From assembly GCF_056746865.1 (NCBI RefSeq), contig NZ_CM163382.1: a stretch of 64,000 bases of DNA; one strand, given 5' to 3'. Of the stretch, positions 54,739 through 55,270 are shown piece after piece; the first letter of the stretch is position 1, and each line of letters starts with the position of its first letter. The translations under genes were made by a program, and so were the position numbers. Below the pieces are notes generated by a model that was given only the letters and a program-made list of their open reading frames with translations, searched no databases and was not told the DNA's origin.

Positions 54739-55270
54739 TCAGATCACATTATTAAGAATCTCACCACACACAACACTATTTGCGCCAATAACTACACCAT
54801 TACCTATACACGCACCTGGTAATATTGTCACGTTTTCACCAATCCACACACGCTCTTCAATATACACAGGTGCAGATTCAAGAGACCTAGATGAAGGAAT
54901 AATAGTTGGTGAACTATGGATATCAGATTTAGAAAAAATACCATGATTATGATCACTAATAAATACTTTACTTGCTATTAATGTATCTCTACCAATAATG
55001 GCATTATTAATAGCCGCGATGTGGAACATAATCATTAATTTGAACATTTTCTCCAATAGACACTATAGCATCCATAAATGTATCACCTCCTAATACTACA
55101 CCTGATGTAAACCCTTTTCCAAAACTAACACTTCCATCTTTTCTAAGATAACATGAAAATCTAATAACCCTAACATTTGAACAAAATAAAACTTTTGTTA
55201 AGAATAATCTTTAAGAAGCCTAAGACCACCATAAAGGCCATATCGTTTAATTAACTTAATTTTTTATGCA
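54739..55270 (-). pseudogene. hexapeptide-repeat O-acetyltransferase gene broken by at least two frameshifts
   Basis: C-terminal left-handed beta-helix ORF 54739..55056. The preceding segments (...GSVSFGKGFTSGVVLGGDTFMDAIVSIGENVQINDYV and MAFMVVLGFLKIILNK...) lie in other frames; one extra C near 55020 (gttccacatcgcg). Confidence 0.55.

Follow-up and report, generated by a model that had tools for sequence, protein, structure and literature searches.

The wbbJ relic and the collapsed insertion sequence at the joint of the Escherichia coli O25a O-antigen cluster

Described WbbJ proteins and the O25a cluster

Among the described systems, the nearest to the locus reported here is the wbbJ gene of the Escherichia coli O25b O-antigen cluster (WP_001296213.1, EC958_2373), which is the orthologue of our relic and occupies the same position downstream of an O25-type wzy. 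In strain EC958 (O25b), the WbbJ protein has 201 residues and is 68% identical to the WbbJ of K-12 (PMC3789825). The O25B repeat unit, ->4)[Glc(1->6)][Rha(1->3)]Glc(1->3)Rha2Ac(1->3)GlcNAc, carries O-acetyl at 98% per repeat unit, whereas in O25A the O-acetyl content lies below detection, and L-FucNAc is found in O25A where O25B has 2-O-acetyl-L-rhamnose (Rha2Ac), the two repeat units differing by 1 Da (PMC8260533). Moreover, Rha2Ac also occurs in O16, the antigen of K-12, with the same neighbors as in O25b, Glc-(1->3)-Rha2Ac-(1->3)-GlcNAc (PMC8260533). K-12/O16 WbbJ, a putative Rha2Ac LPS O-acetyltransferase (NF007240, PRK09677), is of the same family and the same left-handed β-helix hexapeptide fold type as the sequence studied here, but shares only 68% protein identity with the O25b orthologue, and the copy in our DNA is a pseudogene. 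Set directly against each other, the O25b gene is intact, passes the equivalog cut-off of its family, and sits in a cluster that makes Rha2Ac, while in the relic there are three indels, an insertion sequence (IS) has displaced the 22 C-terminal codons, and the surrounding cluster makes FucNAc without O-acetyl.

More distant relatives (E about 1e-14), and ones with a different acceptor, are the solved LbH acetyltransferases LacA (1KQA) and MAA (1OCX), which resemble WbbJ in their core of hexapeptide repeats and in having a catalytic histidine at the aligned position. In O25b WbbJ, the counterpart of the LacA catalytic residue His115 is His112, within DHNHG. The "AGVPxxxI" C-terminal strand of LacA and MAA is present in O25b WbbJ, but absent in the relic, and the corresponding IAGVPAKIV... 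segment is conserved in the LacA and polysialic-acid O-acetyltransferase structures. As for the layout of the cluster, the closest parallel is the IS-associated replacement of right-hand cluster ends in the E. coli O-antigen groups Gp14-Gp16, where, as in O25a, the left part is conserved, the right part, with glycosyltransferase and sugar-synthesis genes, has been exchanged, and an IS is located where the two meet (Iguchi et al., 2015). The O25a joint differs in that its IS has collapsed to 114 bp and has a gene relic on either side (wbbJ' and an O4-type 'wzy), a pairing that may give the exchange a direction. We found no description of the O25a wbbJ relic or of the IS joint in the open full-text literature, although an earlier one may exist elsewhere, and in the open literature examined O25a and O25b are not described as related by such an IS-associated exchange.

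The window analysed is a stretch of 64,000 nucleotides (NCBI RefSeq assembly GCF_056746865.1, contig NZ_CM163382.1) that contains the E. coli O25a O-antigen cluster, with all of the cluster genes on the window minus strand, as judged from the RefSeq annotation of the equivalent stretch. In that annotation, the gene order is rfbBDAC, wzx, GT2, GT4, wzy, a short "O-acetyltransferase", and then a glycosyltransferase, fnlA, wbjC, a wecB-like gene, GT4, wbuC, and gnd. The features around the relic are as follows.

55333-56550, minus strand: O25-type wzy, the last intact gene of the half shared with O25b (93.4% aa identity to O25b wzy)
54742-55273, minus strand: wbbJ pseudogene, orthologous to codons 1-179 of the intact 201-aa O25b gene by DNA alignment to JJ1887
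55260-55273, minus strand: start codon ATG (55273-55271) and poly-A tract A6 (55260-55265) of the pseudogene, from the JJ1887 alignment
55206-55207, minus strand: 1-bp deletion in codon 25, AAAGAT-TATTC in the window and AAAGATATATTC in O25b
55023-55024, minus strand: 1-bp insertion between codons 85 and 86, one C too many in GTTCCACATCGCG, where O25b has GTTCACATCGCG
54739-55056, minus strand: residual 105-codon open reading frame (ORF) with a TTG start
54628-54741, minus strand: collapsed IS3-family element of 114 bp with TG...CA termini, both ends of which match one intact element
54575-54627, minus strand: O4-type wzy relic of 53 bp, consisting of the last 17 codons and the stop (KCFDLGKIGYGFLCSI, then stop), from alignment to O4 strain D8 (L006)
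53359-54462, minus strand: WbuH-like glycosyltransferase gene of O4 type (94.8% aa identity to O4 strain D8)

With regard to the wzy gene, the O25-family sequence is a single open frame of 405-409 codons (window 55333-56562; JJ1887 L005:3137-4366), and no NCBIfam HMM matched the 409-aa product. All of the O25a and O25b records inspected have it labeled "frameshifted" by PGAP (a 1063-nt feature; L001:651-1713), and this label is probably an annotation artefact that stems from the reference protein.

Anatomy of the wbbJ relic

As an intact comparator, we used the 201-aa WbbJ from the O25b cluster of the ST131 strain JJ1887 (L005:4437-5042, WP_001296213.1). The initial annotation had called an O-acetyltransferase pseudogene at this place and had proposed alignment to an intact homologue from an O-antigen cluster; when run against O25b JJ1887, this alignment mapped the lesions and bore out the call, there being multiple frame-disrupting indels and a truncation. 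The relic and the JJ1887 wbbJ share about 93% DNA identity, and 91% aa identity over 175 alignable codons. Its extent had been given about correctly, save that the true start is the ATG at 55273-55271 and not position 55270. Just after this shared ATG, O25b reads ATT-A9-C and the window AT-A6-T, which is five bases fewer, and translation from the relic ATG yields MCIKN and then a stop (5 codons). Further along are the 1-bp deletion in codon 25 and the additional C at the codon 85/86 boundary, and finally the homology to O25b ends at 54742, with the last 22 codons of O25b wbbJ (IAGVPAKIVKKYNYERMQWERI) missing from the relic and replaced by the IS end, whose terminal TGA provides the stop of the pseudogene (54739-54741). 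Of these lesions, the extra C had been spotted beforehand and is real, while the poly-A difference, the 1-bp deletion, the 3' truncation, and the IS scar had gone unnoticed.

From a six-frame translation of 54700-55330 combined with the alignment, the WbbJ-homologous sequence follows the frames 0>1>0>1, that is, two frames with three shifts; the gene is frame-disrupted as had been claimed, but not spread over three frames. Consequent upon these three frame changes, the in-frame stops, and the 3' truncation, no single uninterrupted frame is found in the relic. The true N-terminal segment is KIKLIKRYGLYGGLRLLKD. The peptide MAFMVVLGFLKIILNK (MAFMVV...), which had been taken for part of the acetyltransferase, comes from reading the KLIKRYGLYGGLRLLKD-coding stretch out of frame; in this third frame, BLASTP gave no alignment with WbbJ, and the frame encoding KLIKRYGLYGGLRLLKD is preferred.

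When its frame is conceptually repaired, the relic translation matches NCBIfam NF007240 (WbbJ) with an E of 8e-67 and 224.5 bits over model positions 1-172 of 192, and thus remains below the equivalog cut-off of 243 bits, which O25b WbbJ exceeds with 293.4 bits over positions 1-192. Moreover, Pfam Hexapep recognizes the repaired translation twice (E=3.9e-9 and 9e-4), as befits a hexapeptide (left-handed β-helix) domain, and hence the earlier assignment to a disrupted hexapeptide-repeat acetyltransferase homologue on the minus strand stands. The 105-aa C-terminal ORF is likewise present as described (54739-55056), though it covers only NF007240 positions 78-172 of 192 and scores 126.5 bits, so that neither it nor the repaired relic gives a full-length match above the cut-off. 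The DHNHG motif with the catalytic histidine is still encoded in the third segment of the relic. The C-terminal AGVPAKIV segment of O25b WbbJ, which aligns with the conserved terminal strand of LacA, has no equivalent in the relic. Among 5.8 billion clustered proteins, the only intact one with more than 61% identity was the O25b cluster representative (91%), the next intact relatives being at 61% or less; the O25a-type matches were fragments of 99-102 aa, and no intact copy of the O25a lineage was found there.

Between the relic and O25b wbbJ, dN/dS is 0.35 (15 non-synonymous and 12 synonymous changes, only 27 substitutions in all), as against 0.22-0.29 for the neighboring wzx, wekA, wekB, and wzy, a gap that lies in the direction expected of relaxed constraint, with counts too few to speak for neutral evolution. 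Promoter-like sites within the relic were no commoner than in shuffled sequence, and a scan for terminator-like sites within it revealed none, from which it follows that transcription from the operon promoter can continue into the genes downstream.

The joint with the O4-like module and a proposed direction of change

Immediately past the relic, the left end of the IS extends over 54741-54669 and the right end over about 54672-54628. In APEC E19019 (L010), a single intact IS3-family element, whose transposase is of the programmed-frameshift type, can be aligned to both ends, and the ends also match copies in CFT073 and C41(DE3). Inverted arms are located at 54647-54668 and 54700-54721, with the termini reading 5'-TG...CA-3'. 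The interior of the element, from the start of orfA to the last codons of orfB, is deleted at a TAAC microhomology, and so the whole transposase region is gone. No target-site duplication was found, as the flanking triplets are ATC and GAA. With 114 bp left, no transposase, and no target-site duplication, what we see is a scar and not a mobile element.

On the far side of this scar are the O4 wzy tail (97.3% identity in this region to another O4 genome), with which the imported O4-like module starts, then an O4-type intergenic region, and the wbuH-like glycosyltransferase gene, which opens the intact part of the O4-like FucNAc module and is followed by fnlA, wbjC, the wecB-like gene, GT4, and wbuC. 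In fact, the two homologies abut at the scar, with O25b matching at 95.0% over 4979 bp from wzx to window 54742, and O4 matching at 94.2% over 3233 bp from about window 54632. The module is itself a mosaic in relation to O4 strain D8 (window 52316-54462 against L006:3171-5317), with a dS of about 0.10 in the wbuH-like gene and about 0.54 in the adjacent fnlA.

An origin for this arrangement can be proposed. An ancestor with an O25b-like cluster (rml-wzx-wekA-wekB-wzy-wbbJ-...) would have made the acetylated rhamnose unit, and an IS-mediated joint would then have swapped the right-hand end of the cluster for an O4-like module that supplies and transfers L-FucNAc. The simplest route would be recombination between IS copies in wbbJ and in an O4-type wzy, although other IS-mediated routes are possible; recombination of two IS copies agrees with the absence of a target-site duplication and with the gene stump found to either side of the scar. 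Such a joint would have truncated wbbJ and, at the same time, removed the acceptor of its enzyme, because FucNAc has an acetamido group at C-2 and no hydroxyl there. Thereafter, wbbJ would have decayed neutrally as frameshifts accumulated, the IS would have collapsed by internal deletion, and the relic would be transcribed passively within the operon, with no role. The first event in the loss of wbbJ may have been either the IS truncation or a frameshift.

By parsimony, we infer that the change would have run from an O25b-like cluster to O25a. In O25b, wbbJ is intact, embedded in its operon, and shares 16 bp with the glycosyltransferase gene that follows, and such a copy looks ancestral, whereas one that ends at an IS beside a foreign wzy fragment looks derived, which points to the O25b-like form as the older. 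On this basis, the relic, the IS scar, and the O4 wzy fragment possibly fix the direction, and we put forward tentatively that classical O25a is a derived hybrid and the ST131 O25b architecture is older than it.

The opposite polarity, in which O25b is the younger form and derives either from the O25a-type hybrid or from a FucNAc-making ancestor whose wbbJ was intact, seems unlikely to us. Here, O25b would have imported the 3' end of wbbJ together with wbbK/wbbL-like genes from an O16-like donor. This would suit the usual naming of O25b as a variant of classical O25 and the relatedness of its right-hand genes to O16 genes. Furthermore, dS is about 0.10-0.12 for the O25a and O25b halves and 0.10 for the O25a and O4 wbuH, and with values this similar at both halves neither joint is obviously younger. 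However, O25b wbbJ is contiguous and has the 16-bp overlap of an undisturbed operon, and O25b WbbJ, being only 68% identical to O16 WbbJ (PMC3789825), is not a recent O16 import. Moreover, wbbJ in O25a breaks off at the terminus of an IS, beyond which lies a foreign O4-type wzy fragment, and this is the mark of a derived, joined state.

The relic among O25a genomes and its meaning

To see how widely the lesions occur, eight O25a genomes were aligned (the window, ABU 83972, EcPF14, GN02461, O25:H16 F5505-C1, FDAARGOS_1285, 510016, and FELIX_MS533), with the O25 reference strain E47a (GU014554) falling outside this set. The 1-bp deletion, the extra C, and the 3' truncation are common to all eight, which span ST73-like, O25:H16 ETEC, and other lineages, and there are only 7 variable positions in 1.3 kb, with the poly-A tract (A6 or A7) as the sole variable indel. 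Neither tract length restores the wbbJ frame. A 1.3-kb query around the relic is 100% identical in several E. coli O25 genomes (ABU 83972, EcPF14, CU39ES-1, and others), and all 34 complete O25a genomes with the region match it at 99.6% identity or better. An intact O25b wbbJ, on the other hand, is found in 426 genomes. With an intact orthologue in O25b and lesions common to the O25a genomes examined, the relic is a fixed one.

Taken with the absence of O-acetyl from published O25A chemistry, lesions common to O25a imply that the pseudogene is the normal state of the serogroup. Thus, the wbbJ relic is very probably a fixed, non-functional remnant and not a new loss in the window strain, for which the absence of WbbJ function is itself inferred from the sequence and from published chemistry on other O25A isolates. 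The initial annotation had also foreseen that the homologue in the reference serogroup might be split and still work; it is indeed split throughout the O25a genomes examined, but is not functional in them.

Some further observations were made on this set of genomes. At codons 170-171 of the relic (window 54768-54769), the ST73-like genomes (the window, ABU 83972, EcPF14, and GN02461) have GTG TGT (Cys171), whereas O25:H16 F5505-C1, 510016, and FELIX_MS533 keep the O25b-like GTT CGT (Arg171), and this split within O25a shows that substitutions went on accumulating after the common disabling lesions. The window and ABU 83972 differ at three sites inside the O-antigen cluster, which is otherwise almost identical, but at dozens of sites and by a few small indels over window 45000-47330 (the wzzB, ugd, gnd flank), and this comparison of sequences suggests that the O25a cluster in the window strain is on a different recombinant background from that of ABU 83972. 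Among the O25b-type genomes, the poly-A tract that follows the wbbJ start is A9 in 417 of 426 (L005:4445-4453), and nine differ somewhere in the 86-bp start region. For one of the ST131 strains, AZ 190, the tract is A11 (L011 around 730-745), and PGAP calls a 192-aa product from a downstream start. The variable tract could, by slippage, switch O-acetylation on and off in O25b, or its variation may be no more than noise from assembly.

Alternatively, the gene might have been inactivated recently and in one strain, as the initial annotation implied when it suggested that a loss of O-acetylation would alter the epitope and the serological typing. We regard a recent, strain-specific inactivation of a working acetyltransferase, one that would set the O epitope of the window strain apart from other O25, as very improbable. 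Certainly, the gene is clearly broken, and one homopolymer tract does vary between strains (A6 and A7), but the frame is restored by neither, and all the other lesions, including the IS truncation, are identical in the eight O25a genomes from different lineages. Both the match of the 34 complete genomes at ≥99.6% and the O25A polysaccharide of independent isolates, which has no O-acetyl (PMC8260533), run counter to this reading and to the predicted change in epitope and typing.

It is just as hard to credit that the locus still functions, whether through acetyltransferase activity of the truncated 105-aa product or through ribosomal frameshifting that joins the pieces. In favor of the former, the ORF keeps DHNHG with the histidine aligned to LacA His115, and a 102-aa version of it is annotated as "O-acetyltransferase" in some RefSeq records. 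Yet the ORF spans only model positions 78-172 of 192, with 126.5 bits against the 243 demanded, and lacks both the N-terminal coils and the C-terminal IAGVPAKIV... segment. Programmed frameshifting was considered for the relic and rejected, as three separate shifts would be needed, there are in-frame stops between them, and the C-terminus is gone. From established sugar chemistry, moreover, the acceptor hydroxyl is absent in FucNAc. Likewise at odds with a working enzyme is the O25A polysaccharide devoid of O-acetyl (PMC8260533).

Finally, that the indels are homopolymer errors of sequencing or assembly and wbbJ is really intact has a negligible chance of being right, for while two of them are in or beside short runs (poly-A, CC) and the ABU 83972 record does have a homopolymer indel relative to the window elsewhere (in fnlA), the same indels recur in independent assemblies from different platforms, and a 3' truncation by 114 bp of IS sequence is impossible as a base-calling error. 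As regards fnlA, the gene is intact in the window (52316-53350, 344 codons), whereas the ABU 83972 record (NC_017631.1) has one base fewer in an A/T6 run (window 53245; L008:7317-8350) and PGAP calls it frameshifted; if real, this difference would leave ABU 83972 unable to make UDP-L-FucNAc or to assemble the O25a O unit. Nothing relevant on a rough or O25 LPS of ABU 83972 came up in the open literature.

Having thus kept to a fixed remnant as the preferred reading, we note that it should have little effect on typing and vaccine work, since O25a is known to be without O-acetyl and the phenotype is unchanged by the relic. For annotation, it means that the 102-105-aa coding sequences named "O-acetyltransferase", "DapH/DapD/GlmU-related protein", or "LbetaH domain-containing protein" in some RefSeq records of O25a are best regarded as pseudogene fragments. 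RefSeq labels for the region are in fact inconsistent, appearing as a 93-bp "incomplete" pseudogene, a partial pseudogene, or a 102-aa CDS under various names. The wbbJ relic itself is of an ordinary, well-known kind, and its evolutionary interest is modest. As a record of how an O-antigen subtype was assembled, the locus provides a clean, datable scar, with a collapsed IS and the stumps of two genes where two clusters meet, and it suggests which way the change ran between O25a and O25b, the clinically dominant form. If the proposed origin is true, the swap was one of a 2-O-acetyl-6-deoxyhexose for a 2-N-acetyl-6-deoxyhexose, in repeat units 1 Da apart, which would explain both the serological cross-reaction and the dispensability of wbbJ. 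Here, then, the locus offers a chemical reason for losing a modifying enzyme, in that its acceptor hydroxyl would have been replaced by an acetamido group.
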